This document shows, one piece after another, positions 1 through 33,174 of a stretch of DNA of 64,000 nucleotides. Under the pieces are notes generated by a model. The model saw only the letters and a list, made by a program, of their open reading frames with translations, had not been told where the DNA came from and searched no databases. The DNA comes from Patescibacteria group bacterium (GTDB taxonomy: Bacteria > Patescibacteriota > Patescibacteriia > Patescibacteriales > UBA12465): contig JBMOHE010000001.1 in assembly GCA_049318005.1 (NCBI GenBank), positions 117,995 through 181,994 on the forward strand, read 5' to 3'. Position 1 is the stretch's first letter. Each line of letters begins with the position of its first letter. The translations under genes were made by a program, and so were the position numbers.

Positions 1-1227
1 GACCGGTTAAAGCTGAGTGAACAGCGATATCAGCGGTTTCGTTATCTCGAATCTCGCCAATCATTATAATATCTGGATTTTGACGAAGCAAGGCTCTTAA
101 ACCATTAGCGAAAGTGACTCCTGCTTTTGCGTTTACCTGGGTTTGATTGATACTCGCCACCTCATATTCAATTGGATCCTCAATAGTAGTTATATTAACT
201 TTAGGGGTATTTAGAATATGTAAAATAGAATAAAGGGTTGTTGTTTTACCGTGACCAGTCGGCCCAGTAACCAGAATCATACCGTGAGGTTTTTTTATTT
301 CCTCATTAATAATTAATTCCAACTCTTCGTTAATTCCTAAATCAAATAAGGATAAAGGCTTAGCTGAACTTTTTAATAAGCGCATTTCCGCTTTTTCTCC
401 GTTTAAAACTGGCATTACATTTACACGAATATCAACGCGTGTTCCCGCCTCTAAATTAAAATGAAAACGCCCGTCCTGAGGAATGCGATGCTCATCGATT
501 TGCATGCCGGCCAAAATTTTAACTCGAGCCACTAATATCTGACTAATATCACTAGGGAGAGATAAAATTTCTTGCATTACGCCGTCAACACGATACCTAA
601 CCATTAATTTTTTTGGCAATGGTTCAAAATGGATATCAGAAGCGTTCATCATGATAGCGTTTTCGAGAATACTATCTAAAATACTGACAATCGGCACTGC
701 CTCAGCAATTCTTGCCAAATCCGTTTCTCCACTTAAAGACACCGACTGCTTAATACTCTCTTCAATGATTTGATTAAAATTGGTCCCAATAGTTTTTCGG
801 TATTGTTTAAAAACAAAGTTTAAGCTCGTTGATGAGGTTAAATAAACATCAAGCCACAAATCATATTTAGCTCTAATAAAATTAATTATTTCTAAATCGA
901 GCGGATTGAGCATGGCTATCTTAGCAGTTTTAGCCGCTTGATTATATTCAAAAATAACCGCGCTATTACTCTTAACAAAAGCTTCTGGAAGTAGGCCTAG
1001 CGCTTCAGCGGGAATAATAACTTTCTTTAAGTTAATAATTGGTACGTTAAAATAAGGCGCTAAAAGTTCTAGCAAGAAATCCTCAGATATTTCTTCTCTC
1101 CCCACTAAAACATCGGCTATTTTTTGACCAGAGCGAAAAGCCTCAGCCTTAGCGTCCTCAAAGACTTTTTCAGTTATTAAATCTGAATTTAATAAAAGCT
1201 CCTTTAATTTTTCTTCTTTAATATACA
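1..1227 (-). CDS. pilB: Type IV pilus assembly / T2SS-family ATPase PilB/GspE; the C-terminus runs off the window edge at position 1.
   Basis: My own translation of the minus strand from the ATG at 1227 gives MYIKEEKLKELLLNSDLITEKVF... (GspE N-terminal domain) and ...KPHGMILVTGPTGHGKTTTLYSILHILNTPKVNITTIEDPIEYEV...NPDIIMIGEIRDNETADIAV..., i.e. Walker A and Asp/His boxes of a secretion ATPase. It is absent from the ORF track because the stop codon lies outside the window. Confidence 0.85.
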
Positions 1228-1299
1228 TGTAAAAAAATAAAATTTATAAGTATTTTATAAAAATATTATAACATATTTTAGGTCAAAAATACATAAAAA

Positions 1300-4008: not shown

Positions 4009-4112
4009 ATATTTTATTTATTATTTTAATAATATCATAATATTTAATTTTAATGTAGTTCAAATATTGACCTCCCTCTTATTTAAATGATATACTAATT
4101 TTACAATTGAAT

Positions 4113-4222
4113 AATGTTTATTAAGAGTGCAGCGAGGAATCTAGTCCTATGACCTGCCGGCAACCCCGAAATAATCCCTTCGGTAGGTGCTTCTAGCCCA
4201 ATTCGGGAAAGATAAAGGTCAA
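4113..4222 (+). promoter_or_regulatory. SAM-I (S-box) riboswitch in the metK leader.
   Basis: UUAUUAAGAG...GAGGAAUCUAGUCCUAUGACCUGCCGGCAACC...CCGAAAUAAUCCCUUCGG...GGUGC...AAAGAUAAAGG matches the S-box P1, the kink-turn GAUGA-like UAUGACC, the GGCAACC junction, P3 and the GGUGC element. It sits immediately upstream of metK. Confidence 0.7.
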
Positions 4223-4235
4223 TTATTATTGCATC

Positions 4236-4270
4236 GGCTCTTTCCTGAACGGGATAAGAGTTTTTTATTT
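4236..4270 (+). terminator. Riboswitch expression-platform terminator.
   Basis: CUCUUUCC-ugaacg-GGAUAAGAG hairpin with one bulge, followed by UUUUUUAUUUU. Confidence 0.6.
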
Positions 4271-4298
4271 TAAAAATTAATTATCTAAATCTAAATTT

Positions 4299-15804: not shown

Positions 15805-16218
15805 TTATTTCTTTTCTGAACCTAAACTAGCATGAATATCATTAATAATTTGATCAAGTCTATAGTTTGATTTGGTATAATAATTATTAACGCCGAGGGC
15901 TAAATAACTTTTTACTTTATCATCGCTAGCTGTGTTAGAAACGACAAAGATTGGGATATTCTTAAAGCGTTCATCATTTTTTATTTTTACAACCAAATCA
16001 AGGCCATTCTCTTTCCCTAATAAATAGTGATCAAGCCAGATAACTTTGATTGTTTCTAGGTCCTCAAGTAAGCCAACTGCCTGTTCAACAGTCCTAGCAG
16101 TCACAACCGAAAAGCCACCTTTTTCTAATTTTATTTTAATGGCTTCAAGTAGTGGTTTTTCATCTTCGACCACTAAAATGTTTACATCTTCTACTTTTAA
16201 ATTTTTTACGTCTGTCAT
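15805..16218 (-). CDS. Single-domain response regulator (REC only).
   Basis: VNILVVEDEKPLLEAI...VIWLDHYL...IFVVSNTASDDKVKSYLALGVNNYYTK is a REC fold with no output domain. Confidence 0.8.
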   Translation of the reverse strand: MTDVKNLKVEDVNILVVEDEKPLLEAIKIKLEKGGFSVVTARTVEQAVGLLEDLETIKVIWLDHYLLGKENGLDLVVKIKNDERFKNIPIFVVSNTASDDKVKSYLALGVNNYYTKSNYRLDQIINDIHASLGSEKK

Positions 16219-16233
16219 ATTTTTATTATTTAA

Positions 16234-18603
16234 TTATTCAAGACCGCGATTACCAACCTTCTTTTTCATGCCCGTCAAAGGTAATGATAAATAAAAGGTA
16301 GTGCCTTTATCTTCTTCTGACTCAAACCTTATTGTCCCGCCAAAATGATCAACAATCGATTTAATAATATATAAACCAAGCCCAGTCCCTTCGGTATCCT
16401 TAGCCCTAACATTATCGGCTCTAAATAATTTTGAGAAAATCTTGTCATGCTGACTTTTAGGAATACCATAGCCATTATCGGCAACAGTTACAAGAAGATT
16501 CTTTTTATCTTGGTTCAATATTAATTTTACAGTTCCCTTTTCCGGAGTATACTTAACAGAATTTGATAAAAGATTTTGGAAAACAATACGAAGCAACTTA
16601 GGGTCGGCAGAGATTATCGGGATTGTCTTGTCGTAATCAAAACTTAATTTTAATTTTTTTTCTGCTATACCTGGTTTTAATTCCGATAAAACTTCTTGCG
16701 CGGTTTTAATTACATCAGTTGGTTGAGGTCCAACCGCAAAAGTCCCAAGCTCTAAACGCGAAACATTCAATAATGAATTTACAAGCTCAACCATTCTTTG
16801 ATTACCAGTATATATTTCTTTAACAAATCCAGACTGCTCTTCATTAAGCTTACCACCATCACCAGCCAAAAGCATCTCCGCATACCAATTAATACTTGAT
16901 AGTGGCGTTCTTAGTTGGTGTGAGGCCAGTGACACGAATTCAGTTTTAGTCCTATCGACGTTTTTTTCATGAGTTACATCACGCTCAATGCCAACAAAAA
17001 ACTCAACCTCATTTTTACTGCTTACAACAGGAGAGATACTAATATGAGCATCGTATTCTTCCCCGTTTTTTCTTCTATTTCTAATATCGCCTTCAAAATA
17101 TTTTTTATCAGTCTTAATGGTTTTCCAAAGATTTTTATAAAAGTTTTTTTGCATTGGCAGACTCCAAAGACTGCCAACTTTTTTACCAATAACTTCCTTA
17201 AGATCATAACCAGTAATTCTTTCCAGGCCCTTATTACCATACAAAGTAATTCCCTCTGAATCGGTTATTACAATATGGTCAGACGCATTATCAAGAGCTA
17301 ATTTAAATTTTTCTAAATCGTCAGCTAATTTTATAGTTTTATCCTTTTCCTCTTGAACATCTTCTAAAATATTGATAGTTGCCTTTTTAGCATCTTCCAG
17401 GAATTTGTTTTTTATTTCTAGCTCTGACGTTCTGTCTTTAACTCTTGTCTCCAAATCTCCATAAGAATTTTCTAACTGTTTCGACATTTTCGTAAATACT
17501 GCACCGAGCTCCTCAAGATCATCACCGCTATTAATCGGGTTTATTTTAACATATTTACCTCTACCTAAATTTTCCGACATTTCTCTTAAGACCAAGAGTG
17601 GCTTAAGATTTTTAGACGCCATGACCGAAATCCAAAAAATCGCAATGATTGTAGAAAGCAAAACTAAAAGCCCAAGCAAAATCGCTAAATTGATTGCATC
17701 TGTAATTAAAGTATCAAATTCGGTTTCTATGACTAGAAAAAATTTTGTGTCCCCAATAGGCGCAACCGTTAAAAGCTCCTCCTCTTTTTCAACTTTATCT
17801 GACACTATTTTAACAACAACGTCCTCAACTCCATTATTTATAATGGCAGAAATTTCATCATACTGTAATGCTTTAATTTCAATATTGCTAAATTTTTTTT
17901 GTTCTTTAATCTTAGCTAAAGTTTTTTCGTCCAGATGACCCAAGCTTTGATAAATCCTTTCGGGCAGATTTGAATAAAGTATAATACCGTCCTCATCGCT
18001 AAACATTAACTTACTATCGACATTCAAACTCATCTCACTGAGAATTTTATTTAAAGAATCGGGTTCCATTTTCAAAACTGCCGCCCCGATAATAAGACCA
18101 TCTTTATTTTTAATTGGGCTAGAGAAATAATAACCCGGTTTTCCGGTACTTGCGCCGATTGCCATCTCTAGTCCTTGCTTTCCATTAATTGCACTTAAAT
18201 AGTAACTACGAAAACTATAATTTTTTCCATCTAATAAATGATCAGTCGAAACAAGCGTGGTTCCACTGGCGCTAAGTAAATAAAGAGCTGAATAACTATT
18301 ATTTATATTAAATTGGTCTAAAAGATTAAGAATACTCTGTCTAGCTTCTTCATTAGGACTTTCAACCCAAGAAGTTATTTCTTCAAGCTCAGCTATATAT
18401 TGAGAAAGATTACGTGATTCTTTCAAAAAAACATCAATTTTACTTGCCTGCTCGTGAACAACCGAAGAAAGACTTGCTTGTTTATCTTTTATGTTTCTAT
18501 CATAAGAAAGATAGGCCACTAGCGACAAAGAAATCAAACCTGACAAAGAAACAATCACCAGGGTAATATAGACTATTTTTCCTTTAATAGTTTTAATGGT
18601 CAT
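16234..18603 (-). CDS. Sensor histidine kinase: TM, double-Cache-like extracytoplasmic domain, TM, PAS, HisKA, HATPase_c.
   Basis: H-box SLASHQLRTPLSSI, a PAS domain (LDNASDHIVITDSEGITLYGN...), the N-box NLLSNSVKYTPEKG, and G-boxes DNGYGIP / GTGLGLYIIK. Confidence 0.85.
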   Translation of the reverse strand: MTIKTIKGKIVYITLVIVSLSGLISLSLVAYLSYDRNIKDKQASLSSVVHEQASKIDVFLKESRNLSQYIAELEEITSWVESPNEEARQSILNLLDQFNINNSYSALYLLSASGTTLVSTDHLLDGKNYSFRSYYLSAINGKQGLEMAIGASTGKPGYYFSSPIKNKDGLIIGAAVLKMEPDSLNKILSEMSLNVDSKLMFSDEDGIILYSNLPERIYQSLGHLDEKTLAKIKEQKKFSNIEIKALQYDEISAIINNGVEDVVVKIVSDKVEKEEELLTVAPIGDTKFFLVIETEFDTLITDAINLAILLGLLVLLSTIIAIFWISVMASKNLKPLLVLREMSENLGRGKYVKINPINSGDDLEELGAVFTKMSKQLENSYGDLETRVKDRTSELEIKNKFLEDAKKATINILEDVQEEKDKTIKLADDLEKFKLALDNASDHIVITDSEGITLYGNKGLERITGYDLKEVIGKKVGSLWSLPMQKNFYKNLWKTIKTDKKYFEGDIRNRRKNGEEYDAHISISPVVSSKNEVEFFVGIERDVTHEKNVDRTKTEFVSLASHQLRTPLSSINWYAEMLLAGDGGKLNEEQSGFVKEIYTGNQRMVELVNSLLNVSRLELGTFAVGPQPTDVIKTAQEVLSELKPGIAEKKLKLSFDYDKTIPIISADPKLLRIVFQNLLSNSVKYTPEKGTVKLILNQDKKNLLVTVADNGYGIPKSQHDKIFSKLFRADNVRAKDTEGTGLGLYIIKSIVDHFGGTIRFESEEDKGTTFYLSLPLTGMKKKVGNRGLE

Positions 18604-18609
18604 AAATTT

Positions 18610-20145
18610 TTATTTTGAAGCAATATCAACTCTCTTAATAACTTTCTTAAGCTCGGTCATTTTTAGCTCTCTACCTACCATTAATTCGTTTAATTTTTCA
18701 AGCCCACTATTTCTTTCCATAAGAGTAGATTCAATCTTTTTTATTTCCGTAATATCAGTTATAACCCCTACTAAACCAATAACCTTACCGTTAATATCTT
18801 TATAGGCCGCTTTGTGAAAAATAACATCATGAAGAGTGTTGTCTGAAGCGGGAAATTTCCCCTCATAAGAGCGCGTCCCATAACTTTCTAAGGCATTAAT
18901 ATCATCTTGATGATATTTCTCGGCCAGACTTTTATCTCGATAAATATCATGAATATAACGACCAACCACTTCATTCTTTTTTTTGCCGATTAAATTAAGA
19001 TAAGCCGAATTACAGCCCAAATAAACACCTTTGGAATTCTTATAAAATAATGGGCTAGGGATAGATTCAATCAGGGTCTCCATAAAATATAAGTTATTTT
19101 CATGACGACGTGAAACAGAAAGAGAAAAAAATAGAGAAGCAATAATTAGTAAGATCAGTATTAATCCTATAATAATCGGCCAAAAATATTGAGAGACTAA
19201 TTCACCTAAATCCATTTCTCCATAATTTTCATAGGGGTTGAGTTTAAGGGCCATTAAAAGGTCGTGAACTGACTGATAGTTTAAGGGTGTTGTAAAGCCA
19301 GCAATCTTAGCGCTATTCGCCGGAGCTGAGTTTTGTTCAATTTTAAATAAGGCACCCGCGATCTTACGTGACAAATTATCATCGACGTTACTTAATTTAG
19401 ATAAGGCCCACTCTGGATACAGTTTTGTGCTCCTAAAAAAATTAAAATACTCAGGATCATTAATAATCTTTTTTGAATAATCATTAATAATATAAAAATC
19501 TGTATTTTTAATTTTCTTATCAGCAATTAATTGTTCCAGGACTCCCGTTCTAGCTACTCCCGCATCATATTTTCCAGCTAAAACTTCCTCAACAACTTTA
19601 TTTTGCGCACCTAAAAATTTTAATTCTTTAAAGTCAGCAAAAGGATCAATGCCATAATCAATAAATTCTTTATAGGCTGCCTGCCAACCGCCAAAAGAAG
19701 TTGTTTCAACAGCAGCCACTGTTTTACCCCTTAGGTCTTTTAATTCCTTAATATCTTTTCTATCACTACGAGTCACAATAACACTACCGAATTGGGATGA
19801 TTCAACTCCGGCATTTAAAGCTCGTAAAGTTGCGATTCGGCTAGCGCCAAGTAAAAGTTCAAGCTGAACATAAATAGATGAGTTTGTTAAAACAAAACTC
19901 ACACCCTGACTACGAGAAACTGGTAGAACGTCCTGGAACGTAAGCGGAACAATTTGAAAAGTATAATCCTTAATTTCAGAATTTAAATAATCAGCCGTCG
20001 CCTGCCACATTTCTGCTGTTTTTTTCAAATCATTTTGGTTATCAAGAACGCCAATTTTTACAACTGGCAAGGCCTCTCCACGAGCAATCACTGGAAATAA
20101 TACTAACAGTGAGAAAAATAAAAATAATATTTTATTTTTAAACAT
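18610..20145 (-). CDS. Sensor protein made of a signal peptide, a PhnD/SsuA-like periplasmic solute-binding domain, a TM helix and a cytoplasmic PAS domain, with no output domain.
   Basis: The N-terminus MFKNKILFLFFSLLVLFPVIARG is followed by an SBP-like region (KIGVLDNQ...SFGGWQAAYKEF...), one TM helix (YFWPIIIGLILILLIIASLFF) and a PAS-like C-terminus. It ends 6 nt before the histidine kinase start. Confidence 0.7.
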   Translation of the reverse strand: MFKNKILFLFFSLLVLFPVIARGEALPVVKIGVLDNQNDLKKTAEMWQATADYLNSEIKDYTFQIVPLTFQDVLPVSRSQGVSFVLTNSSIYVQLELLLGASRIATLRALNAGVESSQFGSVIVTRSDRKDIKELKDLRGKTVAAVETTSFGGWQAAYKEFIDYGIDPFADFKELKFLGAQNKVVEEVLAGKYDAGVARTGVLEQLIADKKIKNTDFYIINDYSKKIINDPEYFNFFRSTKLYPEWALSKLSNVDDNLSRKIAGALFKIEQNSAPANSAKIAGFTTPLNYQSVHDLLMALKLNPYENYGEMDLGELVSQYFWPIIIGLILILLIIASLFFSLSVSRRHENNLYFMETLIESIPSPLFYKNSKGVYLGCNSAYLNLIGKKKNEVVGRYIHDIYRDKSLAEKYHQDDINALESYGTRSYEGKFPASDNTLHDVIFHKAAYKDINGKVIGLVGVITDITEIKKIESTLMERNSGLEKLNELMVGRELKMTELKKVIKRVDIASK

Positions 20146-20215: not shown

Positions 20216-20656
20216 TTAACGTGTTGCGGTAATCGTTGCGCCCTGCTCGGCGTTAGGAGCGGAAACAGTAACTCGACCGTTAACAGATTTAGAAATAGTA
20301 TATCTAATACCATTAGTCGAAGCGCCAATTGGATCAATAGGCATAGAGATCAAGTATTTTTCACTGGCAGTTAAAACGCCAAGGTCAATTAATCCAGTAC
20401 AAGTTCCACCCGTTTTACAAATTTCTGTAGTAGTAGAGGTAATAGAAGCGGGAATAGTTCCGGTATTATTAACTGAATATTGATAAACAGCATTTAAAAT
20501 AGTATTAACATCAACGCGTCTTTGAGCGTTTTTTGTATCGCCTAATTGCTTGCCCGGGTTAATGGCAAGAATAACAATGCTAGCTAAAATGGCGATAGCG
20601 GCAACTACTAAGAGGATTTCTAATAAGGTAAAACCTTTAAAATTAGTTTTTTTCAT
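20216..20656 (-). CDS. Type IV pilin (candidate major pilin, 146 aa).
   Basis: MKKTNFKGFTLLEILLVVAAIAILASIVILAI is a prepilin leader with G^FTLLE; the size is typical of PilA/ComGC-like pilins, and the gene has its own terminator. Confidence 0.85.
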   Translation of the reverse strand: MKKTNFKGFTLLEILLVVAAIAILASIVILAINPGKQLGDTKNAQRRVDVNTILNAVYQYSVNNTGTIPASITSTTTEICKTGGTCTGLIDLGVLTASEKYLISMPIDPIGASTNGIRYTISKSVNGRVTVSAPNAEQGATITATR

Positions 20657-20755
20657 AATGTCTTAAGTTAAATTTTTATATGAGAAGTATTTAATTATTA
20701 ATATTATATCATGTTTTTCTTACAGCGCCAAGCTTTAAGGCTAAGAAATTTTGTC

Positions 20756-21178
20756 CTAATCGGCCACGTCTGACCAAGAAGAAATGATGATTTTCGGGCT
20801 TATTGCACTAATAAAAATTCTTACTTTTTTTGTATCGCTTAAAATAGTACTGGTCGCGTCAATTGTTCGCGTTGACGCGCCTGTATTAGTAACCGAATAG
20901 AAACAAGTTCCCCCACTAAGAGTAATCGTGTTTGACCCAGTGAAACTAGTATTATCACGAACTTGCTGGAGCGCCTCCTCGGCGCAAGCGTCAGCTAAAA
21001 ATTTAGCTCTAAATGAGTTTGTGTAAATCAAACTGCTTTTAGTGGCGTCTATCCCACTGGTTAACATAAAGAGAACAATACTAAAAATAACAGCGCCAAT
21101 AATAATAACGCTAATTAAAGTTATATAGCCCTTTTCCTCCCTACTTTTAAATAGTAATTTTATTGTGTTTCTTATCAT
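20756..21178 (-). CDS. PilX-like minor pilus assembly protein.
   Basis: The N-terminal TM GYITLISVIIIGAVIF is followed by AKFLADACAEEALQQV, resembling the PilX_N AEAGLE region. A paralog lies at 63267..63671. Confidence 0.55.
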   Translation of the reverse strand: MIRNTIKLLFKSREEKGYITLISVIIIGAVIFSIVLFMLTSGIDATKSSLIYTNSFRAKFLADACAEEALQQVRDNTSFTGSNTITLSGGTCFYSVTNTGASTRTIDATSTILSDTKKVRIFISAISPKIIISSWSDVAD

Positions 21179-21180
21179 AC

Positions 21181-21702
21181 TTAGTAACGATGACTAACGC
21201 TCATGTTAAAATTTTTAGTATATGAATATTCTGAACGCCCAAAAGAATCCACTGCACTTAAAGTAAAACGACAATTAATACTATCAGGGGCTCCGGTTTT
21301 CCCATAATTAGCACAAAGAAAATTTGTAACTGTTACTTTAGAATTTGTTAAAGCTATGTCTGAGCCGCCTGCTAAATTTATCATTAAACCACTACCGACA
21401 AGTTTAAAAACGGTTGGATTACGACTAGCGTCAGAGAAACTTAGAGTTAAACTTGAACCACTCACTCCCGGTAAGGGCGCAGTAATATTCGCAGCCGCTT
21501 TGATATTTTGATTAAGTAATTGAGTTATATTTATCCCCTGTTGTTCTATTTCAGAAATTATTTGATTTTTCTCTTTGGCCTGAGAAACGGCATTCATAAA
21601 AGATGAAATCGTTAAAACTAATGTTCCCATAATCGAAACATATAAAAGCAGCTCTACTAAAGTAAATCCCTGTTTATTTTTTTGTTTTTTCAAAATTATC
21701 AT
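21181..21702 (-). CDS. Minor pilin / pseudopilin (prepilin-type N-terminus).
   Basis: NKQGFTLVELLLYVSIMGTLVLTI carries the G^FTLVE motif. Confidence 0.75.
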   Translation of the reverse strand: MIILKKQKNKQGFTLVELLLYVSIMGTLVLTISSFMNAVSQAKEKNQIISEIEQQGINITQLLNQNIKAAANITAPLPGVSGSSLTLSFSDASRNPTVFKLVGSGLMINLAGGSDIALTNSKVTVTNFLCANYGKTGAPDSINCRFTLSAVDSFGRSEYSYTKNFNMSVSHRY

Positions 21703-21704
21703 TA

Positions 21705-23183
21705 TTATTGCGGTTTAGTAATAACTAGCTGCCTATTGCTACTACCGACAAAACGAGCGCCAGCTAAATAAAGTCTATCGTAAGTAGGACTATAATCTAT
21801 TCCGTTTGTATTAAAATTAGAAGTCGTGCCAGAAATATCCATTACGCTTAACTGGGTAGGGGTTGTCGGGTTAGTCACGTCAAATATTCTCAACTCCCCG
21901 CTAGTAAGAGTATTGGCAAGGGCCAAGTAGGTATCATTATTAAATAAAACCATGCCCTGAGCTGAGCCGCCAGTTGACCAACCATTAGCTGCTAAAAGTA
22001 CTGGCACGGTTTTACTGGTAATATTAATAGGATAAACAATAGCATCCATACGACTAAGAAAAGCGACTGTACTAGCTGAATTAACCATAATCGCGCGACC
22101 ATTAGTCGCGGTCGCGGCACCAATAATATTAATAACCGCTGTCCTAACCGGCAGAGCTGGATTAGTTATATCAATTATTTGAAATTCACGGATATCATCT
22201 TGAGAAGCTATATAAGCATAATTTCCAACTACACGTATGTCTTGAGCAGTTGCTTCGAGATTTAAAACGCCGGCCGACGTTGGTAAAGCGGGGTTGCTAA
22301 CGTTTACTACCTCAAATTCATTTTGACCATTAGTAGCACTAAGCGCACGAACAAAATAAACATAATTTCCCGATATAGCTGAACCATAAGCATCGCTATT
22401 ACCAGCCGCATTAAAAGTCCCAACTAAAGCCGGGGCGGCCTTATTAGTAATATTAACAATCTGAAGCTCGTTCGCATTCCCCGTTCCAGTTACATAAGCA
22501 TAATTACCCGATACGATAACGTTACTCAAATTGGCTACCAAAGTTGCGCTACCAGTTAAGACTGGGTTAGTAGTTGATGAAATGTTTACTACTAAAAAAT
22601 TAGGGGTACCTGATACTAAAACAACATAGGCATAATCGCCGAAAACAGTTACATCAACTCCGGAGGTAGTCGGCACGGCGGCATAACCAGTTTCTATAGA
22701 CGGTAATGACCAATTTCCAATTCCCGATTTTGCCCAATTTGTTAAATAGGTTACTAAACTAAAACTACCACTGCGCTGAGCATTCTGATTCCAGGTAACG
22801 GTTGAAGTTGCAACTAATCTATCTGTTCCATTTGAACCAATTAAAATTTGTCTAATAAATTCTCCATCTGTATTACTGGTTCCAGAGATAGACCAACTTC
22901 CAGTTGAAGTTGAAACTCCGTATGGTCCTCCAATACTTAAATTAGTAAAAGCAGCATCGCTAATATTTCTTAAAGCCTCAAGACCTTCTTCGGCATATAA
23001 AGCCGCTCTCTGCCTTTCGCCACTAAGCACTGCTGCTTCTTCGCCATAAAGAAAAGCCTGCACAGCGAATGAAGTGATAATTAAAAAAAGAGCCGCCGAA
23101 AGCATTACTTCAAGTAAAGCAAAGCCACTTTTTTTAGTAACTAATTGTTCCTTGAGAGTTAATAGAAACATTTTTAGATTCAT
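21705..23183 (-). CDS. Large pilin-like protein with a prepilin-type N-terminal helix fused to LVIVD-repeat (β-propeller) modules.
   Basis: KKSGFALLEVMLSAALFLIITSF (G^FALLE), then repeated GNYAYV...N(I/V)(S/T)NPxxP units (PF08309-like LVIVD repeats). It overlaps the upstream ORF by about 40-50 nt. Confidence 0.7.
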   Translation of the reverse strand: MNLKMFLLTLKEQLVTKKSGFALLEVMLSAALFLIITSFAVQAFLYGEEAAVLSGERQRAALYAEEGLEALRNISDAAFTNLSIGGPYGVSTSTGSWSISGTSNTDGEFIRQILIGSNGTDRLVATSTVTWNQNAQRSGSFSLVTYLTNWAKSGIGNWSLPSIETGYAAVPTTSGVDVTVFGDYAYVVLVSGTPNFLVVNISSTTNPVLTGSATLVANLSNVIVSGNYAYVTGTGNANELQIVNITNKAAPALVGTFNAAGNSDAYGSAISGNYVYFVRALSATNGQNEFEVVNVSNPALPTSAGVLNLEATAQDIRVVGNYAYIASQDDIREFQIIDITNPALPVRTAVINIIGAATATNGRAIMVNSASTVAFLSRMDAIVYPINITSKTVPVLLAANGWSTGGSAQGMVLFNNDTYLALANTLTSGELRIFDVTNPTTPTQLSVMDISGTTSNFNTNGIDYSPTYDRLYLAGARFVGSSNRQLVITKPQ

Positions 23184-23577
23184 TATTAATTGAATTTAAA
23201 ATAATTGTACCGTTTGTAATTGGCGTCCCCGTAGCTTTATAAAAAACTACTTCCGTTAAACCACTAACAGAGCCTAAACTATTTAAATTTTCGCTTTCAT
23301 CATAAGCGCTATCGCGAGAGATATATGAAGATCCTTTAAACGTTACTGAGCTCGTGCTTGTTATATAAACTCCCCAATTAGAATCAGCTTCTGCTCCGCG
23401 CGCCAAGCTTTGAGCTCGACGCCAATCAGAAACTACTTGCTTAACAGCTAAATCAAGGTTATTGCGATTATAAAAAAAACCGGAGACCGGAATAATAATT
23501 GCCGCTAGGACTCCAATCGTAGTAAGCACTAAAAGTATTTCAATTAAAGTAAAGCCCGAAGACTTTTTTTTGAGCAT
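23134..23577 (-). CDS. Minor pilin / pseudopilin.
   Basis: MLKKKSSGFTLIEILLVLTTIGVLAAIIIP (G^FTLIE). Confidence 0.75.
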   Translation of the reverse strand: MLKKKSSGFTLIEILLVLTTIGVLAAIIIPVSGFFYNRNNLDLAVKQVVSDWRRAQSLARGAEADSNWGVYITSTSSVTFKGSSYISRDSAYDESENLNSLGSVSGLTEVVFYKATGTPITNGTIILNSINNESKNVSINSQGTISY

Positions 23578-23591
23578 ACGTTAAATGAACC

Positions 23592-24674
23592 TTAATTAAG
23601 AGAATTATAGCCGCCAATCAAACTATAAATAGGTAAAATAATAGATAAGGCAACGCCGACAACGCCCAACCAAACAACAATTAGTAAAATCGGCTCTAGA
23701 ATAACTACTAGATTCTTAGTCGTCATTTCAGTTTTATCATTATAGCTTTCGCCAATTTTGACAAGAATATCAGCTAAATTACCCGACTGTTCCCCGGCAA
23801 TAATCATTTGCTGAATTGAGTATGGCATTATTTTGTTTACCTTTTTATAAGAAGCAAAACTTTTTTGAAAAGAATTCCCTTCTTCAACATAATCTTTTAA
23901 AAAAGTATAAAATTTTTGATAGCGAAAAAATGTACTTGAACTTTTTATTGACTCTAGCGCCTGCTCGACTGGCAAACCAGCTCCAAGCAAAGTTCCTAGT
24001 AAGTAACCAAAGCGCGCTAATTCAACTTCTTGAACTAATTTACTTATTCCCGGAGTTGCTAAAACGATAGACTGACCAATAAATTTTGTTTTCGAGAAAA
24101 TAAAAATAAAATAAATTAAAGCCGAGAGAAATAATAAGAAAGATGGAACTACTATATATCCATAGGCCCCTAAAAATTTTCCAAAATCAATCATTAATCT
24201 TGTAATAAGTGGCAACTTTACATTCATTTGCGAAAAAACAGTCGCTAAATTAGGCAAGATAAACCAAGAAATACCAATTGAGATTACGAGAGCTAAAAAA
24301 ATAACAAAAACCGGATACATCATGGCCGACTTAAGTTTAGATTTAAACTCTTTATTTTTTTCAGTTTGACTGGCAACAATTTTTAAATTTTCTGATAATC
24401 GTCCTGTTTCTTCTCCAATTTTAATTAAAGAAATTGTTGATTCCGGGAAAAGATTAGAGGAGGCGGCGGCCCGCCAAAAAGAAGAACCATTTTCTACCTC
24501 TTGGCTCATGTGGTTTAATATCTCACTCAAATACTTTGATTTGATCTCTTTTTGAACAGCCAAAAGAGCCATAGAAACATTTAAACCAGAGGATAATAAA
24601 AGGGTTAAATTTTCAATTAAAATTCCCCTTTCAGCACCCGTCCCCAAAGATGAAAAAAAATTATTTTTTTGCAT
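23592..24674 (-). CDS. pilC: Type IV pilus / T2SS inner-membrane platform protein PilC/GspF.
   Basis: Duplicated GspF domains; IKIGEETGRLSENL and a second IAGEQSGNLADIL motif; three TM helices. Confidence 0.85.
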   Translation of the reverse strand: MQKNNFFSSLGTGAERGILIENLTLLLSSGLNVSMALLAVQKEIKSKYLSEILNHMSQEVENGSSFWRAAASSNLFPESTISLIKIGEETGRLSENLKIVASQTEKNKEFKSKLKSAMMYPVFVIFLALVISIGISWFILPNLATVFSQMNVKLPLITRLMIDFGKFLGAYGYIVVPSFLLFLSALIYFIFIFSKTKFIGQSIVLATPGISKLVQEVELARFGYLLGTLLGAGLPVEQALESIKSSSTFFRYQKFYTFLKDYVEEGNSFQKSFASYKKVNKIMPYSIQQMIIAGEQSGNLADILVKIGESYNDKTEMTTKNLVVILEPILLIVVWLGVVGVALSIILPIYSLIGGYNSLN

Positions 24675-26316
24675 ACGGCGGGTTGGCTACGCGAAGTAAT
24701 TCGTCTAAAGTTGTTAAGCCATTCTTTACTTTCTCAAGCCCATCTTCAAATAAAGATATGGCTCCATTTCTTTTAGCGACTTCCCAAATTTGCTGACTAG
24801 AAGGATTTTTTAAAATTAATTCTTGCAGTTCGGGGTTTATACTTATGAATTCAAAAATTCCAATTCTTCCCTTATACCCAGTTCCAGAACAATTGGGACA
24901 ACCCTTACCTTTGTACAAAGTAACATTCTCTTTGCCAAAATATTTTTTTGCTTGCGGCAATGTTTTTTCTAAACTTGATGTTTTAACATTAATAGAATAG
25001 CGGCAAGACTCGCAAATACGACGCGCTAAACGCTGGGCAACAATTAATTCAAGCGTTGAGGATAAAAGAAAAGGCTCTATGCCCATATCTATTAAACGCG
25101 GAATAGAGGTTGAAGCGTCGTTAGCATGAAAAGTTGAAAGCAAAAGATGGCCAGTCAAAGCAGCGTTAACAGCAATTTCCGCCGTTTCCTGATCGCGAAT
25201 TTCGCCAACTAAAATAATATCCGGATCCTGCCTAACAATAGAACGCAATCCCTTAGCAAAAGTTAAATTAGTTTGTTGATTAACTTGAATCTGATTAATG
25301 CCGGAAATTTTAAACTCAACTGGATCTTCGATAGTTGTAATATTTACTTCGGGATCATTAAGTGTTCTAAGGACAGCATATAAAGTCGTCGTTTTTCCGC
25401 TACCAGTTGGGCCGGTAACTAAAATCATGCCAAAAGGTTTTTTTGCCGATATTTCTAATAATTTCTGACTATCACCAAGCAAGCCCAAGTCACTCAAAGC
25501 AAAGCTACGCATATAATCAGCGAGCAGACGAAGAACAATTTTCTCACCATCTAAAGTCGGGATTAAAGAAAAACGAGCATCAATTAAACGACCGTCACGA
25601 ACAAAGCGAATCGCACCGTCCTGAGCGGCATAATGTTCATCGATTCTTAAACGAGCTTGAACCTTCAAGCGGTTAACAATATTCTCATAATATTCTTTAG
25701 GAATTCTTCCAGCCTCATGCAAAACGCCATCAACACGAAATCTAACAACCACTTCTTTTTCTTGAGGCTCAAAATGGATATCAGAAGTTCTAAAACTAAC
25801 CGCATCAGTTAAAATTTCTTCGATGATTTCCGGGGCGACGCTTTTCTGGTCTTTAATAATCTGACTAAATCTAGTTGCTAAGGTTTTTCTATATTTACCC
25901 AGAGCGGCTTCAATATCTTCTTCAAGCGAGTAAGCTAAAGAAACCTTTTTCTTAGGAAATAAAATTTTTATCTTATCAATTAAATGAATATTATCCGGAG
26001 TATCGGTCGCAATCACTACTTCTTTAGCCCCTTCTTCAAATAATATCAAACGAAATTTTTGAGCTATTTCTTCAGGTATTTTAGCAATTTGCTCCTTACT
26101 CGGCTGATTTGAATTTAAATCTGCATAAGCTAATTTATAAAATTCAGCAATCGCCTGCCCTAATAAATCAGAGGTTAATATTTCTTCGGCAATTAAATAA
26201 TCAGCTAAACTTGTATGTCTAGCTTCACTATTCTTTAATGCTAAGACTAAATCTTTTTCTTCAACATAATTACCGCTAAGTAAAACTTGCTGTAATTGCT
26301 TGTCTGATAATTTTAT
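24661..26316 (-). CDS. pilB: PilB/GspE-family pilus assembly ATPase, second copy. There is no canonical start codon: the GspE N-domain coding sequence begins immediately after the stop of the upstream response regulator gene.
   Basis: GPTGSGKTTTLY (Walker A), DPDIILVGEIRD, LTGHLLLSTFHAND (His box) and a tetracysteine motif C..C...C..C. My translation upstream of the ORF-track TTG start continues without a stop as FPIKLSDKQLQQVLLSGNYVEEKDL...LGQAIAEFYKLAYADLNS...IPEEIAQKFRLILFEE (GspE_N domain). The codon aligned with Met1 of the first pilB is ATA. Confidence 0.8.
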   Translation of the reverse strand: MKLSDKQLQQVLLSGNYVEEKDLVLALKNSEARHTSLADYLIAEEILTSDLLGQAIAEFYKLAYADLNSNQPSKEQIAKIPEEIAQKFRLILFEEGAKEVVIATDTPDNIHLIDKIKILFPKKKVSLAYSLEEDIEAALGKYRKTLATRFSQIIKDQKSVAPEIIEEILTDAVSFRTSDIHFEPQEKEVVVRFRVDGVLHEAGRIPKEYYENIVNRLKVQARLRIDEHYAAQDGAIRFVRDGRLIDARFSLIPTLDGEKIVLRLLADYMRSFALSDLGLLGDSQKLLEISAKKPFGMILVTGPTGSGKTTTLYAVLRTLNDPEVNITTIEDPVEFKISGINQIQVNQQTNLTFAKGLRSIVRQDPDIILVGEIRDQETAEIAVNAALTGHLLLSTFHANDASTSIPRLIDMGIEPFLLSSTLELIVAQRLARRICESCRYSINVKTSSLEKTLPQAKKYFGKENVTLYKGKGCPNCSGTGYKGRIGIFEFISINPELQELILKNPSSQQIWEVAKRNGAISLFEDGLEKVKNGLTTLDELLRVANPPYAKK

Positions 26317-26322
26317 GGGAAA

Positions 26323-26703
26323 TTATTTAACTTTTAGAATTTTTTTGATGTTTTCGATAATATCGAGAAGCGGAGTATTTGATTTAATAAAAAAAGCCAC
26401 GGCGCCAAGGTCCTTAGCTTTTTTAGCGTCATCTTCCTGGCTCAAATTAGACAAAACGACAATCGGCGTTTTAATTTTTTTAGCATTCATTTCTATCATA
26501 ATACTAAAACCATCTCGTTTTGGCATCATTATATCAAGGAGAATAATATCAAATTTCTCTTTAAGAATAAGGTCCATTGCCTCTTCGCCGTTACTCGCTA
26601 TGGTCGGCAAAAAACCTGAATGACTCAGTTTTAGTTGAAGCGCATTGGCCATTAGTCTTTCATCCTCGGCTATCAACACTTTTTTCAATTTAATTTCAGG
26701 CAT
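26323..26703 (-). CDS. Single-domain response regulator (REC only), in the same reading frame as the downstream pilB.
   Basis: KVLIAEDERL...DIILLDIMMPKRDGF...LSNLSQEDDAKKAKDLGAVAFFIKS; paralog of 2898..3263. Its stop TAA (26323-26325) is followed in-frame by the GspE_N coding sequence. Confidence 0.85.
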   Translation of the reverse strand: MPEIKLKKVLIAEDERLMANALQLKLSHSGFLPTIASNGEEAMDLILKEKFDIILLDIMMPKRDGFSIMIEMNAKKIKTPIVVLSNLSQEDDAKKAKDLGAVAFFIKSNTPLLDIIENIKKILKVK

Positions 26704-27959: not shown

Positions 27960-29195
27960 TTATACGCCCTGATTAAAGACCAGAGTGCTATTTTTATAGT
28001 TATAATCAAAAGCTGATTTAAATTTCTCTATTATCATGACATCATCAGTTAAAATAGCTGATTCATCATTGTAATAAGAGCCCGCCTTACTCCAGTTATT
28101 CGTTCCAAACAATATTTTACTATCGTCAACCATTAACATGTGGTAATGAAGAAATGGGTCAACTACGTTAATTATGTTGTTCGGCTGATTATTATTTATG
28201 CTGAGTGGGGTGCTAGAAGCATCCATTAAAATTTCTAGATTATCTAATTTTAATCTCTTCTTTTCATCGTTTAAATAAGAAAAAGCTGAACTTTTATTTA
28301 TAATATTAAATGAATCGCCAATAACAATGACTCTAACGCCAGCACTAGCTCGATTTATCAATTCAGCTGCTAAATTTCTATCTGTTAAGTCCCAAATCAT
28401 AATTTTTATGCTGTTTTTAGCCTCCTTAATCAACTTATAAAGACTATCGTTTATTCCCTCGTTATGACGGCCTGGACCAAATAAAACTGTATATTTAAAT
28501 TTTCCAGCTATAAGCTCTAGGTCCTTGGGATTATATGATTTATTATCCAGCTTCTTTATACCTGATTCTCCAAAGCTTAATCGATCAAATTCATGGCCAA
28601 AACTATTAACTAGCCAATGACTACCAGTTAAAAAAAGAAAACTCTGATCATACTCGTCCTGAATTTCGGTCCAATTATTAGAACCAAATATTAAGCGTTC
28701 ATTATTTTCTCCTCTATCTATCAGGGCAAATTTATGATGCATTAAAACAGAATAAGTAGTACTGGAGCTTCCCAGATCTAAGCGTTTTATGGCTAGAGGT
28801 AAATCAAGCCACAGAACATCATTGATCTCTTTTTTATGTAAATCGAAAATTAAAGTTACCTTTACTCCACGATCTACCGCCCTATACACAGCCTCTTTTA
28901 TGCTTTGCGATTTAAAAGAATAAACAGCGATTTCTAAACTCTTACTAGCCTTATCAATTTCCTTAATTATTAAAGGCGAGAATGAATTAGTGCTGGAGGC
29001 GTAATTAAAATATATGTTGCTTTCTACTGGCTCACTAGTTTTTACAATTTCCCCTAAATCATGACTCATAAATATACTACCCAATAGGTTATATGACTCC
29101 TTGGCCAGCCAAGCTAATAACAAGATACTAAAAACGATTACTATTAATATAATAGCTTTATTATGAACTATTTTTTTTAATTTTCTAAATTTCAT
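27960..29195 (-). CDS. PLD-superfamily protein (two HKD-type motifs, the second degenerate) with an N-terminal signal-anchor.
   Basis: Motif 1 HHKFALID...GSNNWT (HxKxxxxD...GSxN); motif 2 HYHMLMVDD...GTNNWS (K replaced by H); N-terminal TM IILIVIVFSILLLAWLA. Overlaps the upstream gene by 11 nt. Confidence 0.75.
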   Translation of the reverse strand: MKFRKLKKIVHNKAIILIVIVFSILLLAWLAKESYNLLGSIFMSHDLGEIVKTSEPVESNIYFNYASSTNSFSPLIIKEIDKASKSLEIAVYSFKSQSIKEAVYRAVDRGVKVTLIFDLHKKEINDVLWLDLPLAIKRLDLGSSSTTYSVLMHHKFALIDRGENNERLIFGSNNWTEIQDEYDQSFLFLTGSHWLVNSFGHEFDRLSFGESGIKKLDNKSYNPKDLELIAGKFKYTVLFGPGRHNEGINDSLYKLIKEAKNSIKIMIWDLTDRNLAAELINRASAGVRVIVIGDSFNIINKSSAFSYLNDEKKRLKLDNLEILMDASSTPLSINNNQPNNIINVVDPFLHYHMLMVDDSKILFGTNNWSKAGSYYNDESAILTDDVMIIEKFKSAFDYNYKNSTLVFNQGV

Positions 29196-30894
29196 AATAA
29201 TTATTATAATTTAGCAGATCGCGGCGCCCCTTAGAAAAAAAAACGAGTGAACTATCTTTGAGCTCCTTCTCCAAAAGAAGAAGCAAGGCGTCGATTGCGG
29301 GATCATTTAAATCGAGCCAATAATTATCAATAGTTATAAACTTCGGTTTTGTCTGAAGACAATGAGCAACTTGTAATAGTAAGCAACTTTTTGAATTAGT
29401 AATAAACTTATCAGCCCTTAAGCGCCAATCAGCTCTTTCAAAAAATATATCTTTCAATTCTTTATGGCTGTTAACTAAGTTTGAAATGCTTAGCAAGTCA
29501 TCGGTCTTAACTCTATCCTTTTCTTTCCCGGCCACTATTTCCAAAATACTGCGTCCACTTTTAAAGGCCGGGTCTATATAATATGAACCAGAATACGCTC
29601 TAAAAAAATCATTATAGTAAAAACGTTGCTTATCCGCTTTAATTATCCAAGCATGACGATTAAAATCACTTCGCCCGGCAAATAATTTTGCCAGTTTCGT
29701 CTTTCCGCTTAATCTATCGCCACTTATTAAATATCGAAATCCAACAATAAACTCAAATGATAAATTCTTATAATATTTAGACTTTTTATAAAGTTTTGTT
29801 TTTGAGCTTTGAAAAATTAAACTTTTAAACTTATGTTTTATTAACTTATTAAGGGGCCGTATGCCTTTAGGCGGTATGGACAAAATTAATCCGAATAGCA
29901 GCGGGACCGAATAGAGTCCAACTCGTAAACTTTCAAACAGTAAACGTGAGCAATAGATTATTAAAATTATCAATAAAAAGTTATTATCGGGACTAACGGA
30001 AAGAATTGCGCTTATCTCCTGTCTATAATAACTAATTAGCCAGCTAAAGAAAATAAATATAATAAACAAGATGCTTGATCCAAACTTCAACCATAGGTCA
30101 CGGCGAACTCTAAAATAAGAATCCAATTTTACCAAATTATTAAAATCGGACAGAGCCTGATTCTCTCGACGAAAAAATTTTGTAAACTGCCAATCTGATA
30201 ATGAAAAATCTACTAATTTAATAACTTGGGAATAAAAAGTAGTTTCTTTAATAACATATTTTTTTGCAATAAAAAAAGCGCTAATCATTACTAGAGCGCT
30301 CAATATTAAAGATAATATTAACCACCAAAGAAGCTTCGGTCCAAAAATAAAACACAGAATAATAAATATAAAAACTAGAAGAAGCCAACGGACGGAGCCG
30401 AGCAGGCAGTTTGTTAAGCCAGAAGAAAGCATCGGCAAATGGTATGATATTTTAGCAAGCAGTCTCCCCTTTTTTTCTAAATTATATTCGTCATTGGTTT
30501 GAGATAATAATGATTTAAACCAATTTTCGCGTAAATTATTAATTAAGCGAATAACGGCCGTTTTTTCTAACTTAATTGCCAGATAAGACACAACTAAATA
30601 TAAACTTGCCGCCCCTGCAATAACCAACAAGGTTACAATCAGACTTACTTTAGTAGTCGATATTGCTCCTGATTTAATATACTGATGGCTGATCAATATT
30701 AAAATTATTTCTAAAATTCCCTGCCCAAAAATAAGAGCTAAAGTAAAAAGAATTATTTTTTTTTCTTTTTTAAAAAATTTCAAAAGATAATTAATATGCT
30801 CCCGTAAAGGACGCAGGGATTGACGACTCCAGCGCTCGTCTCTCAATTCACGTAAAAATTTAATTTGTTCATCGGCCATATCCATAAATAACAT
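29185..30894 (-). CDS. ABC exporter-like fused TMD-NBD protein with a degenerate nucleotide-binding domain.
   Basis: Six TM helices with long cytoplasmic loops (type I exporter fold); Walker A ISGDRLSGKTKL is present, but the ABC signature is replaced by ITNSKSCLL and Walker B by FITIDNYW (no catalytic Glu). Overlaps the RT gene by 26 nt. Confidence 0.7.
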   Translation of the reverse strand: MLFMDMADEQIKFLRELRDERWSRQSLRPLREHINYLLKFFKKEKKIILFTLALIFGQGILEIILILISHQYIKSGAISTTKVSLIVTLLVIAGAASLYLVVSYLAIKLEKTAVIRLINNLRENWFKSLLSQTNDEYNLEKKGRLLAKISYHLPMLSSGLTNCLLGSVRWLLLVFIFIILCFIFGPKLLWWLILSLILSALVMISAFFIAKKYVIKETTFYSQVIKLVDFSLSDWQFTKFFRRENQALSDFNNLVKLDSYFRVRRDLWLKFGSSILFIIFIFFSWLISYYRQEISAILSVSPDNNFLLIILIIYCSRLLFESLRVGLYSVPLLFGLILSIPPKGIRPLNKLIKHKFKSLIFQSSKTKLYKKSKYYKNLSFEFIVGFRYLISGDRLSGKTKLAKLFAGRSDFNRHAWIIKADKQRFYYNDFFRAYSGSYYIDPAFKSGRSILEIVAGKEKDRVKTDDLLSISNLVNSHKELKDIFFERADWRLRADKFITNSKSCLLLQVAHCLQTKPKFITIDNYWLDLNDPAIDALLLLLEKELKDSSLVFFSKGRRDLLNYNNYYEI

Positions 30895-32598: not shown

Positions 32599-33057
32599 TT
32601 ATAGCGGTTTATAATTAAACTCTTTGACAGTCAAACCATCGGCGCTAAGTTTAATTTCAGCTTCAATTTTTTCTCCTGCGAGTATAAGCGGCATCCACAT
32701 AGCATCATCTATCCACATTTCGTCAAATGGAAGATTGGCTATGGAGCGCCATTGAGGGCTCATCTCTTCGGTTTCAATAGGGTTCCCCTTCCAAACATAA
32801 AGTAAAAACACATAACAATCAAAAACATGATTTTCATCAAAGTAAAAATGAATTAAAGCAACTTGTTTAAGATTGTCTTCGCTAGTAATAAGGCCGGACT
32901 CCTCTTTAAGTTCACGGATAGTAGCCATCAAAGGGCTTTCATTCTCTTCGATTTTTCCCCCGTAACCATTTAATTTATCACAGCCGAAGCCACGCTTCTT
33001 TAATCCTAAAAGAATTTGTTCCTCGTTAATACAATAACAAAGAGTTGATTTTTCCAT
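32599..33057 (-). CDS. NUDIX hydrolase.
   Basis: Nudix box [24 protein letters not shown] (GX5EX7REUXEEXGU). I place the start at MEKS (33057), because the ORF-track extension to 33135 would overlap the tRNA. Confidence 0.8.
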
Positions 33058-33089
33058 ACTATTGCCTTTTATAATGTACAAAACAAGTG

Positions 33090-33174
33090 CGGAGAGACAG
33101 GGATTCGAACCCTGGGTACCTTTCGGTACACACACTTTCCAGGCGTGCGCACTAGACCGCTATGCGACCTCTCC
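33090..33174 (-). tRNA. tRNA-Ser (anticodon GGA), class II with a long variable arm; CCA not encoded.
   Basis: The reverse complement is GGAGAGG-TC-GCA-TAGCGGTCTAG-TGC-G-CACGC-CU[GGA]AA-GUGUG-UGUACCGAAAGGUACC-CAGGG-UUCGAAU-CCCUG-UCUCUCC-G. It has a 7-bp acceptor stem, U33, A37, a 16-nt variable arm, a T-loop TTCGAAT and discriminator G. Confidence 0.85.

Follow-up and report, generated by a model that had tools for sequence, protein, structure and literature searches.

Initiation at near-cognate codons (AUA, AUU, AUC and CUG) has been described in bacteria, infC with its AUU start being one example, and start-codon mutants have been measured in E. coli (Hecht et al., bioRxiv 10.1101/063800). 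Initiator tRNA is then engaged with a third-position mismatch, the expected output is a few percent of that from AUG or less, and such starts are permitted by Table 11 and by NCBI annotation. In E. coli reporters, AUA supported initiation at ~1-2% of the AUG level, with a range of 0.02-3% (bioRxiv 10.1101/063800). Non-canonical starts are also selected against by IF3 (PMC2268962). Translation of adjacent genes can also be joined by termination-reinitiation coupling (PMC10666635; PMC2268962), for which an intergenic distance of -8 to +10 nt is treated as predictive (PMC10666635). Both sets of numbers, on AUA and on coupling, were obtained in E. coli and Haloferax rather than in Patescibacteria.

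The locus described here was analyzed in a window of 64,000 nucleotides from a Patescibacteria group bacterium (GCA_049318005.1, contig JBMOHE010000001.1). It carries pilB2, a gene for a type IV pilus assembly ATPase, in which AUA is the only plausible start. The AUU of infC is a conserved regulatory feature, whereas the AUA of pilB2 is derived, occurs in one strain and has neither a Shine-Dalgarno (SD) motif nor a sign of selection for a weak start. The stop codon of the preceding gene lies 6 nt before the pilB2 start with an SD-less spacer, and pilB2 overlaps pilC2 by 14 nt, as in coupled genes; classic coupling cases have 4- or 1-nt overlaps with AUG or GUG, in contrast to the 6-nt gap and AUA here, where coupling is predicted. 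Domain architecture, motifs, the pilB-pilC-pilin operon, two paralogous systems and a small genome are shared with the Patescibacteria with two type IV pilus systems described in PMC9894109 and PMC11623550. The organisms of that work are Saccharibacteria, whereas the window genome is Paceibacteria/Parcubacteria-like and has an upstream REC partner that is conserved in its clade.

The REC-pilB2 junction

The source MAG is a Paceibacteria/Parcubacteria-like member of the Patescibacteria with an ordinary REC, pilB, pilC type IV pilus operon. Its features in the window are as follows.

26802-26779 (-), terminator-like hairpin of the gene upstream of REC (consensus scan only)
26766-26738 (-), promoter-like site ahead of REC, TTGTCG-17-TATTAT with TG (consensus scan only)
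26323..26703 (-), REC, single-domain response regulator (CheY-like), 126 aa (Pfam Response_reg, 2.2e-21)
26317..26322 (-), spacer TTTCCC, 6 nt from REC stop to pilB2 start, without a Shine-Dalgarno motif
26314..26316 (-), ATA at the pilB Met1 position, derived from an ancestral ATG by a G to A transition (orthologue comparison)
24661..26316 (-), pilB2, GspE-family type IV pilus assembly ATPase, 551 codons + TAA, MshEN + T2SSE
26047..26049 (-), TTG, first canonical start after the REC TAA, codon 92, inside MshEN
23592..24674 (-), pilC2, T2SSF platform protein, its ATG overlapping the pilB2 end by 14 nt (Pfam)
20216..23577 (-), further along the operon, pilin/pseudopilin genes with the N_methyl motif, plus a large LVIVD-like protein
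15805..20145 (-), sensor module closing the cluster distally: periplasmic-binding + PAS protein, dCache-PAS-HisKA-HATPase kinase, second REC protein
1228..1 (-), pilB1, the first PilB, cut by the window edge

The terminator-like hairpin and the promoter-like site upstream suggest that REC is the opening gene of the pilus operon and its transcription unit. The REC reading frame ends KKILKVK and is closed by TAA (26325-26323), with T as the next base. The same frame continues TTT CCC ATA (26316-26314) AAA TTA TCA... and is open to the TAA at 24663-24661. The original prediction of one frame from 26703 to 24661, broken only by the TAA at 26323-26325, was thus reproduced exactly in coordinates and reading, as was the alignment of ATA with Met1 and the lack of any ATG, GTG or TTG before codon 92, the first being the TTG at 26049. 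Neither property is unusual alone: the prior for REC and pilB2 sharing a frame is 1 in 3, and a run of 90 codons without ATG, GTG or TTG has a probability of ~0.07 at pilB2 codon usage. A structure promoting readthrough or coupling was sought at the REC stop, and only a weak A/U hairpin of 6-8 bp was seen, spanning the stop to codons 2-3 and not clearly better than in shuffled sequences.

PilB2 was placed in the GspE/PilB ATPase family on the basis of its domains, motifs and gene context, and would be expected to act as such. In the 553-aa stop-to-stop translation, Pfam located MshEN at residues 62-147 (49.9 bits, cutoff 23.1) and T2SSE at 159-544 (401.9 bits, gathering cutoff 24.9); the MshEN domain is placed upstream of the first canonical start. 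The Walker A motif GPTGSGKT (302), DPDI of the Walker B region/Asp box (364) and the His box GHL (389) are present, and the tetracysteine motif is intact (CESC at 435, CPNC at 473). No stop, frameshift or second lesion was found in the 551 codons (1.65 kb) beyond the start codon.

The PilB1 N-terminus MYIKEEKLKELLL aligns with IKLSDKQLQQVLL of PilB2; the two proteins are 39% identical and pilB1 lies in a different cluster. Both REC proteins near pilus genes had been described as paralogues of about 55% identity. The paralogy held, with an identity of 52%, and the second copy (2898-3263, +) is no direct neighbour of pilB1, from which it is separated by two genes and a change of strand. A nearby reverse transcriptase was considered as part of a DGR, and no template/variable repeat pair was found.

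Among the 39 ORFs of the window, only pilB2 has no canonical start close to the stop that precedes it. A genome-wide habit of non-canonical starts was rejected for the window, the other ORFs having no long open stretch before a canonical start. Recoding of ATA as Met was also rejected, 63 of the 88 orthologue residues aligned to the 11 internal ATA codons of pilB2 being Ile; four of these codons are invariant Ile, codon 493 aligns mainly with Met and codon 289 is variable. Shine-Dalgarno motifs were found for 2 of the 39 genes. The window genes are thus essentially SD-less, and initiation here is independent of SD pairing.

Orthologous loci and the origin of the ATA codon

Eight orthologous loci, all that were retrieved, were compared (L003-L008, L209 and L210; 74-93% protein identity). 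ATG-AAA-TTA-TC... stands at the homologous codon in 8/8, and all eight have a separate REC gene directly upstream of pilB. It is this ATG, set against ATA in the window at the Met1 codon, that makes the codon a non-random feature of the locus. In ~50 more distant PilB loci a canonical start is likewise close to the aligned Met1, at a distance of a few codons at most. A scan of genome contigs yielded no close relative, the best GTDB match having 63% identity, and provided the taxonomy and the base rate of canonical starts. A metagenome-wide scan with the pattern AAATAAN{4,14}ATRAAATTATCNGA returned 120 AT-rich chance matches, none of which encodes PilB by tblastn.

The REC-pilB spacer in the relatives ranges from 6 to 38 nt, being 6 nt in L006, L209 and L210 and 8, 11, 12, 16 and 38 nt in the others. 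Relative frames of REC and pilB are 0, 0, 0, 0, 2, 2, 2 and 1, and tandem stops follow REC in L003 (TAA TAG) and L004 (TAA TAA). The shared frame in the window is therefore a consequence of the 6-nt spacer that its subclade inherited.

The ATA was found in two further sequences, both from Logan assemblies, which are independent single-run assemblies of different runs. L001 (SRR30676220) matches the window at 100% identity over 7389 nt and L002 (SRR30676216) over 4516 nt, ATA included in both. Persistence of the ATA allele through divergence was not seen, ATA being found only in 100%-identical copies. Taken with the orthologues, these data make it very probable that the ATG-to-ATA substitution is real and that REC and pilB2 are separate genes and not a fusion. 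As an observation on sampling, the three ATA-bearing sequences, being 100% identical, represent one clone and possibly one study.

A sequencing or assembly artefact, with C as the true plus-strand base at 26314 and hence ATG on the coding strand, would fit the facts that the codon is one base away from a universally conserved ATG and that the sequences may all come from one project. Against this, the MAG and the two per-run Logan assemblies agree on the base, with no other discrepancy over 7.4 kb, and the changed base, in the context CCCATAAAA, is outside any homopolymer; an artefact is very unlikely. Of the error or point mutation of an ATG that had been proposed, the mutation is thus borne out by the orthologues and the error contradicted by the assemblies. 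Relatives with ATG, a separate REC and no fusion had been named as grounds for taking the locus as an ordinary coupled pair with a sequencing error: ATG, a separate REC and no fusion in the clade were all found, but the cause of the ATA is a real substitution and not such an error.

Constraint on pilB2 was estimated from substitution rates. dN/dS was 0.04-0.06 against the relatives, a sign of strong purifying selection, and between the window and L006 it was 0.043 overall and 0.078 in codons 2-91. The dN to outgroups was lower for the window (0.068-0.072) than for L006 (0.085). For the window, unique changes at otherwise invariant sites numbered 0 within codons 2-91 and 3 over codons 92-551; for L006 they numbered 1 and 7. 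By dN/dS and by dN to outgroups, no faster change or relaxed constraint was detected on the window branch of pilB2. Because dS to the closest relative with ATG is already ~1.1, the age of the ATG-to-ATA change is not datable, a recent loss of function would be invisible in dN/dS, and constraint on the branch is no proof of present function.

Clade-wide pseudogenisation of pilB was rejected. The gene is split in L006 (126+392 aa) by loss of 1 nt in an A8 run and in another contig (195+333 aa), while an intact 551-aa protein (P0121), in the same 90% cluster as L006, occurs on 11 contigs; the split in L006 is probably an assembly error or an individual variant.

Proposed production of PilB2

We consider it somewhat probable that a real ATG-to-ATA change has left two separate genes and that PilB2 is still made, weakly, from AUA with the help of termination-reinitiation. 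PilB2 would then be a 551-aa protein with fMet at AUA, made far more slowly than an AUG would allow, and its N-terminus would read (f)M-KLSDKQLQQVLLSGNYVEEK. Ribosomes terminating at the REC UAA 6 nt upstream would reinitiate locally and so aid the AUA start. The net effect would be a turned-down supply of the pilus assembly ATPase that depends on REC translation. Both the actual use of AUA and its help from coupling are inferred here. De novo initiation at an SD-less AUA would be very weak, which counts against its proposed use. The earlier suggestion of non-canonical ATA initiation stands as plausible, the gene being intact and constrained and the NCBI protein (MFZ4631714.1) being annotated as 551 aa starting MKLSD at the ATA codon.

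Rather unlikely, by comparison, is a recent knock-out or knock-down allele, in which the change to ATA effectively shuts off pilB2 in this clone, has happened too recently for secondary decay to accumulate and is tolerated through pilB1 or the lifestyle of the cell. The start codon is the sole otherwise-invariant position counted as changed, there is no SD to compensate for an AUA whose output in E. coli is no more than a few percent of that from AUG, and the allele is confined to 100%-identical sequences, all of which would suit silencing. However, a second lesion is absent from the 1.65 kb, and the pilC2 start, lying within the 14-nt overlap at the pilB2 end, probably needs pilB2 translation, so that silencing would have polar effects throughout the operon. 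The presence of the paralogous pilB1 would make loss easier to bear, but it shares only 39% identity and belongs to another cluster, and the two type IV pilus systems of Saccharibacteria play distinct roles (PMC11623550). Disrupted pilB genes in some clade assemblies also fit silencing, although these splits are at homopolymer runs, may be assembly errors and stand beside the intact P0121 on 11 contigs. A start at the internal TTG (26049) would give a 462-aa PilB without the N-terminal 89 residues. This is the first canonical start and the one chosen by automatic callers of the Prodigal type (Logan gene call P0003, in which part of MshEN is lost), but it cuts MshEN (62-147), and since it lies inside that domain it cannot be the native start of pilB2. 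Purifying selection acts on the 90 codons before it (dN/dS 0.078), neither an SD nor a favourable context accompanies the TTG, and the equivalent codon is TTG only in L005 and L210, which together make its use highly improbable.

Low-level readthrough of the REC TAA, giving a REC-PilB fusion of ~680 aa as a phospho-regulated ATPase in one chain, had been put forward from the single frame across one TAA, and single-ORF REC-MshEN-T2SSE proteins elsewhere indicate that the architecture is viable. The shared frame is not conserved (frames 0, 1 and 2, spacers of 6-38 nt), two relatives have tandem stops, every relative has its own ATG, and a REC domain is present in 0/120 of the closest PilB homologues. 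No promoting structure is evident at the stop, and the natural fusions are only ~38% identical and from unrelated lineages. UAA followed by U is the most efficient terminator among E. coli termination contexts, and the REC stop, UAA followed by U, is such a strong context. Readthrough is therefore extremely improbable and this part of the original prediction is not supported. It is also very doubtful that ATA is a selected setting, in which SD-less initiation and an AUA 6 nt past the REC stop tie the amount of the motor to its regulator, with rare UAA readthrough perhaps adding trace REC-PilB. PilB synthesis would in that case depend strictly on ribosomes that had just finished REC. A non-canonical start conserved among relatives was not found, the eight orthologues all having ATG.

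Returning to weak AUA initiation with separate genes, the finding leaves current understanding unchanged. The 551-aa protein from ATA is already in the NCBI annotation. Its value lies partly in annotation: callers limited to ATG, GTG and TTG shorten PilB2 to 462 aa, and homology-guided NCBI annotation restores 551 aa from ATA. The locus also offers a modest natural case of a start-codon transition in a Patescibacteria genome that is AT-rich and SD-less, and could be used for asking how such organisms treat near-cognate starts.

REC regulators and pilus ATPases

A search with a concatenated REC + PilB protein as query identified about seven clusters of single-ORF REC-MshEN-T2SSE fusions (P0212 and P0278-P0283; 688-697 aa) in which the REC Asp and Lys are invariant. 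They align colinearly with the hypothetical product of readthrough (query 7-672, fusion 5-689), and the module order is the same as that of REC followed by pilB2 here. The natural fusions are uninterrupted ORFs with a Pro-rich linker, ~38% identical and from other phyla, whereas the window genes are parted by a strong stop. One was found in an Armatimonadetes MAG (GCA_016183865.1) and none in the lineage of the window; one fusion locus that was inspected stands alone, outside any pilus operon. REC-GspE as an architecture, raised earlier, is thus real as rare true fusions in unrelated lineages and absent from this clade. The conserved adjacency of REC and pilB, together with these rare fusions, hints at a functional link between the two proteins, in which REC may act directly on the pilus assembly ATPase.

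PilG and PilH of the Pseudomonas Chp system are CheY-like single-domain regulators of type IV pili. As in that system, the REC of the window is a stand-alone regulator genetically linked to type IV pilus genes, and its cluster includes a sensor kinase. Unlike in the Pseudomonas Chp system, the cluster has no Chp/CheA-type kinase, its kinase being dCache-PAS-HisKA, and REC next to pilB is not the Pseudomonas layout. The same dCache-PAS-HisKA-HATPase kinase follows the pilins in L209.

The REC-pilB2 junction

The second pilB of the window (pilB2) lies directly downstream of a single-domain CheY-like response regulator gene (REC). The original prediction of one frame shared across a single TAA, with ATA at the position of Met1 and no canonical start for 91 codons, was accurate in each part. 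The genes concerned were as follows.

26703 to TAA 26325-26323, minus: REC, response-regulator receiver gene, 126 aa (Pfam Response_reg)
26316-24661, minus: pilB2
1228 to window edge, minus: pilB1, the first PilB, N-terminus MYIKEEKLKELLL, 39% identical to pilB2
2898-3263, plus: REC paralogue, not adjoining pilB1

After the REC TAA the same frame reads TTT CCC ATA (26316-26314) AAA TTA TCA GAC and stays open to TAA 24663-24661. Its first ATG, GTG or TTG in the mechanical ORF list is TTG 26049, codon 92 after the REC stop. In the translation taken from stop to stop, Pfam assigned residues 62-147 to MshEN and 159-544 to T2SSE. This TTG thus falls within a domain, and every canonical start comes after the conserved N-terminus. 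pilB2 was the sole ORF among the window's 39 with a long open stretch ahead of its first canonical start and, on the evidence of 64 kb, odd start codons are not in general use by this organism. The predicted REC paralogue near pilus genes was present, at 52% rather than about 55% identity to REC.

Origin of the ATA codon

Orthologous loci were compared from eight relatives (74-93% protein identity, each from a different sample). The homologous codon was ATG in all eight (ATG AAA TTA TC..., or in the two remotest loci ATG CAA and ATG GAC), and the ancestral pilB2 start was therefore ATG. Almost all of about 50 more distant PilB loci, taken from GTDB genomes where the N-terminus aligns, had a canonical start no more than a few codons away from the position aligned with Met1. 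Two Logan contigs, separately assembled from SRR30676220 and SRR30676216, match the window at 100% identity across 7389 and 4516 nt and also read TAA TTTCCC ATA AAA. Random assembly error is excluded by these copies, and systematic error is unlikely since the altered base is outside any homopolymer. The proposed sequencing error is not supported; a genuine point mutation from ATG is. The ATA-bearing copies represent one clone and say nothing on the age of the allele.

The NCBI entry MFZ4631714.1 ('MAG: GspE/PulE family protein [Patescibacteria group bacterium]'; 551 aa, on a 198-kb contig) begins with MKLSDKQ and matches pilB2 exactly apart from the initial residue. NCBI therefore already places the start at the ATA codon, and the gene is thus treated correctly in public annotation. 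In both Logan contigs pilB2 was called as 462 aa from TTG. What the ATA represents is variation at strain level in the start codon of a standard gene, useful in practice as a warning on truncated gene calls.

Constraint, readthrough and initiation

All 551 codons of pilB2 were open, with no second lesion found, and the motifs GPTGSGKT, DPDI, GHL, CESC and CPNC were intact. Against the closest relative, L006, dN/dS was 0.043 (dN 0.046, dS about 1.1; Nei-Gojobori), at the low end among all comparisons of similar depth. dN to the relatives L003, L209 and L210 was 0.068-0.072 from the window vs 0.085 from L006, so the window branch is not accelerated. Codons 2-91, left untranslated under a TTG 26049 start, gave dN/dS 0.078 with 0 window-specific changes at otherwise invariant sites. 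Reassignment of ATA was rejected because the 11 internal ATA codons of pilB2 mostly align with Ile (63 of 88 aligned orthologue residues).

In L006 itself (SRR32481713 contig, 3525-5179) pilB was split into 126 + 392 aa, one base having been lost from a CCGAAAAAAAAG run. A second contig from the 90% cluster of P0020 carried a 195 + 333 aa split, and the intact 551-aa form of that cluster (P0121) was present on 11 contigs. These splits reflect either homopolymer errors in assembly or variation of the slippage type affecting the pilus ATPase.

Readthrough of the REC TAA, giving a REC-PilB fusion, was judged very improbable. When 1.84 billion representatives were scanned in full by HMMER with concatenated REC+PilB, one colinear match spanned both modules (P0212, 694 aa, query 7-672 vs 5-689); by Pfam it is composed of REC, MshEN and T2SSE. 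A follow-up search extended this architecture to seven clusters (P0212, P0278-P0283; 688-697 aa, 42-83% identical to P0212), in which the REC phospho-acceptor Asp, Lys and Walker A motif were invariant. The one genomic locus inspected, in Armatimonadetes MAG GCA_016183865.1 (L211, 5001-7094), held the gene alone with no pilus operon. Other lineages thus encode REC-PilB as one genuine ORF, which lends Rosetta-stone support to a direct functional link between the CheY-like protein and PilB. A REC domain was absent from 120 of 120 closest homologues of the pilB2 protein, and in the clade of the window the eight orthologous loci exclude conserved recoding: each has a separate REC gene directly upstream and no fusion, with relative frames of 0, 0, 0, 0, 2, 2, 2 and 1, spacers of 6, 6, 6, 8, 11, 12, 16 and 38 nt, and tandem in-frame stops in L003 (TAA TAG) and L004 (TAA TAA). 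The 6-nt spacer of the window (TAA TTTCCC) is shared with its nearest relatives L006 (TAA TTACCT ATG), L209 and L210 (TAA TTTCTT ATG), and the common frame thus arises incidentally from inherited spacer length. The REC stop is also UAA followed by U, the tightest stop context in E. coli. The conserved REC-pilB pairing offers a modest clue to how REC may regulate PilB in Patescibacteria.

The simplest account of an AUA lying 6 nt after the REC UAA is that ribosomes terminating on REC would reinitiate at it, yielding normal 551-aa PilB at a lowered level. Efficient termination-reinitiation requires an overlap or a very short spacer, -8 to +10 nt being treated as predictive (PMC10666635). AUA initiation in E. 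coli reporters reaches about 1-2% (range 0.02-3%) of AUG (10.1101/063800), and IF3 works against both non-canonical starts and reinitiation that lacks an SD (PMC2268962). The chief competing explanation is that the ATA allele has recently knocked down or knocked out one of the two pilus systems; with the nearest relative at dS about 1, an inactivation of recent date could not be seen here. Against simple redundancy, two reports on Saccharibacteria describe two T4P systems with distinct roles (PMC11623550, PMC9894109). Of the originally proposed ATA initiation, residual use is probable, given an intact, constrained gene and the NCBI start. A 6-8 bp A/U helix (AUAAUUU ... AAAUUAU) could pair the REC stop region with pilB codons 2-3 (window 26290-26330, minus; L006 3510-3540; L209 2255-2285); the helix was weak energetically, with no clear advantage over shuffled controls at these three sites.

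Operon context and other features

The gene order was REC, pilB, pilC (overlapping pilB2 by 14 nt), then several N_methyl pseudopilins and a large LVIVD-like protein; relatives show the same order, and a dCache-PAS histidine kinase comes after the pilins in L209 too. The genes at the end of the cluster suggest that it carries its own two-component sensor. An SD-like motif at -18..-6 was present in 2 of 39 window ORFs of at least 100 aa, upstream regions being merely A/T-rich, which suggests SD-independent initiation in this genome; TAA was the stop in 34 of 39 genes. Flanking and unrelated features were:

ahead of REC, minus: terminator-like hairpin and promoter-like site
15805-20145, minus: cluster end, with periplasmic phosphonate-binding-like+PAS protein, dCache-PAS-HisKA-HATPase kinase and second REC protein
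30869-32080, 29185-30894 and 27960-29195, minus: RVT_1 / ABC_membrane-like / PLD-like module
4115-4218, plus: SAM riboswitch (RF00162, 52 bits), upstream of ORF 4299-5288
33090-33174, minus: tRNA gene, overlapping the 5' end of mechanical GTG ORF 32599-33135

The RVT_1 reverse-transcriptase gene overlaps the start of the 569-aa ABC_membrane-like protein, and the PLD-like nuclease-family protein comes next. No DGR-type template/variable repeat pair was found within 26.7-36.5 kb; a defence-type or retron-like RT system is one possible identity for the module. The NUDIX-like ORF 32599-33135 probably starts at an internal ATG (MEKSTLCY...). The right-hand 27 kb (36286-63117, minus) holds very large ORFs of 721, 1243, 1246, 1625, 2123, 656 and 818 aa.
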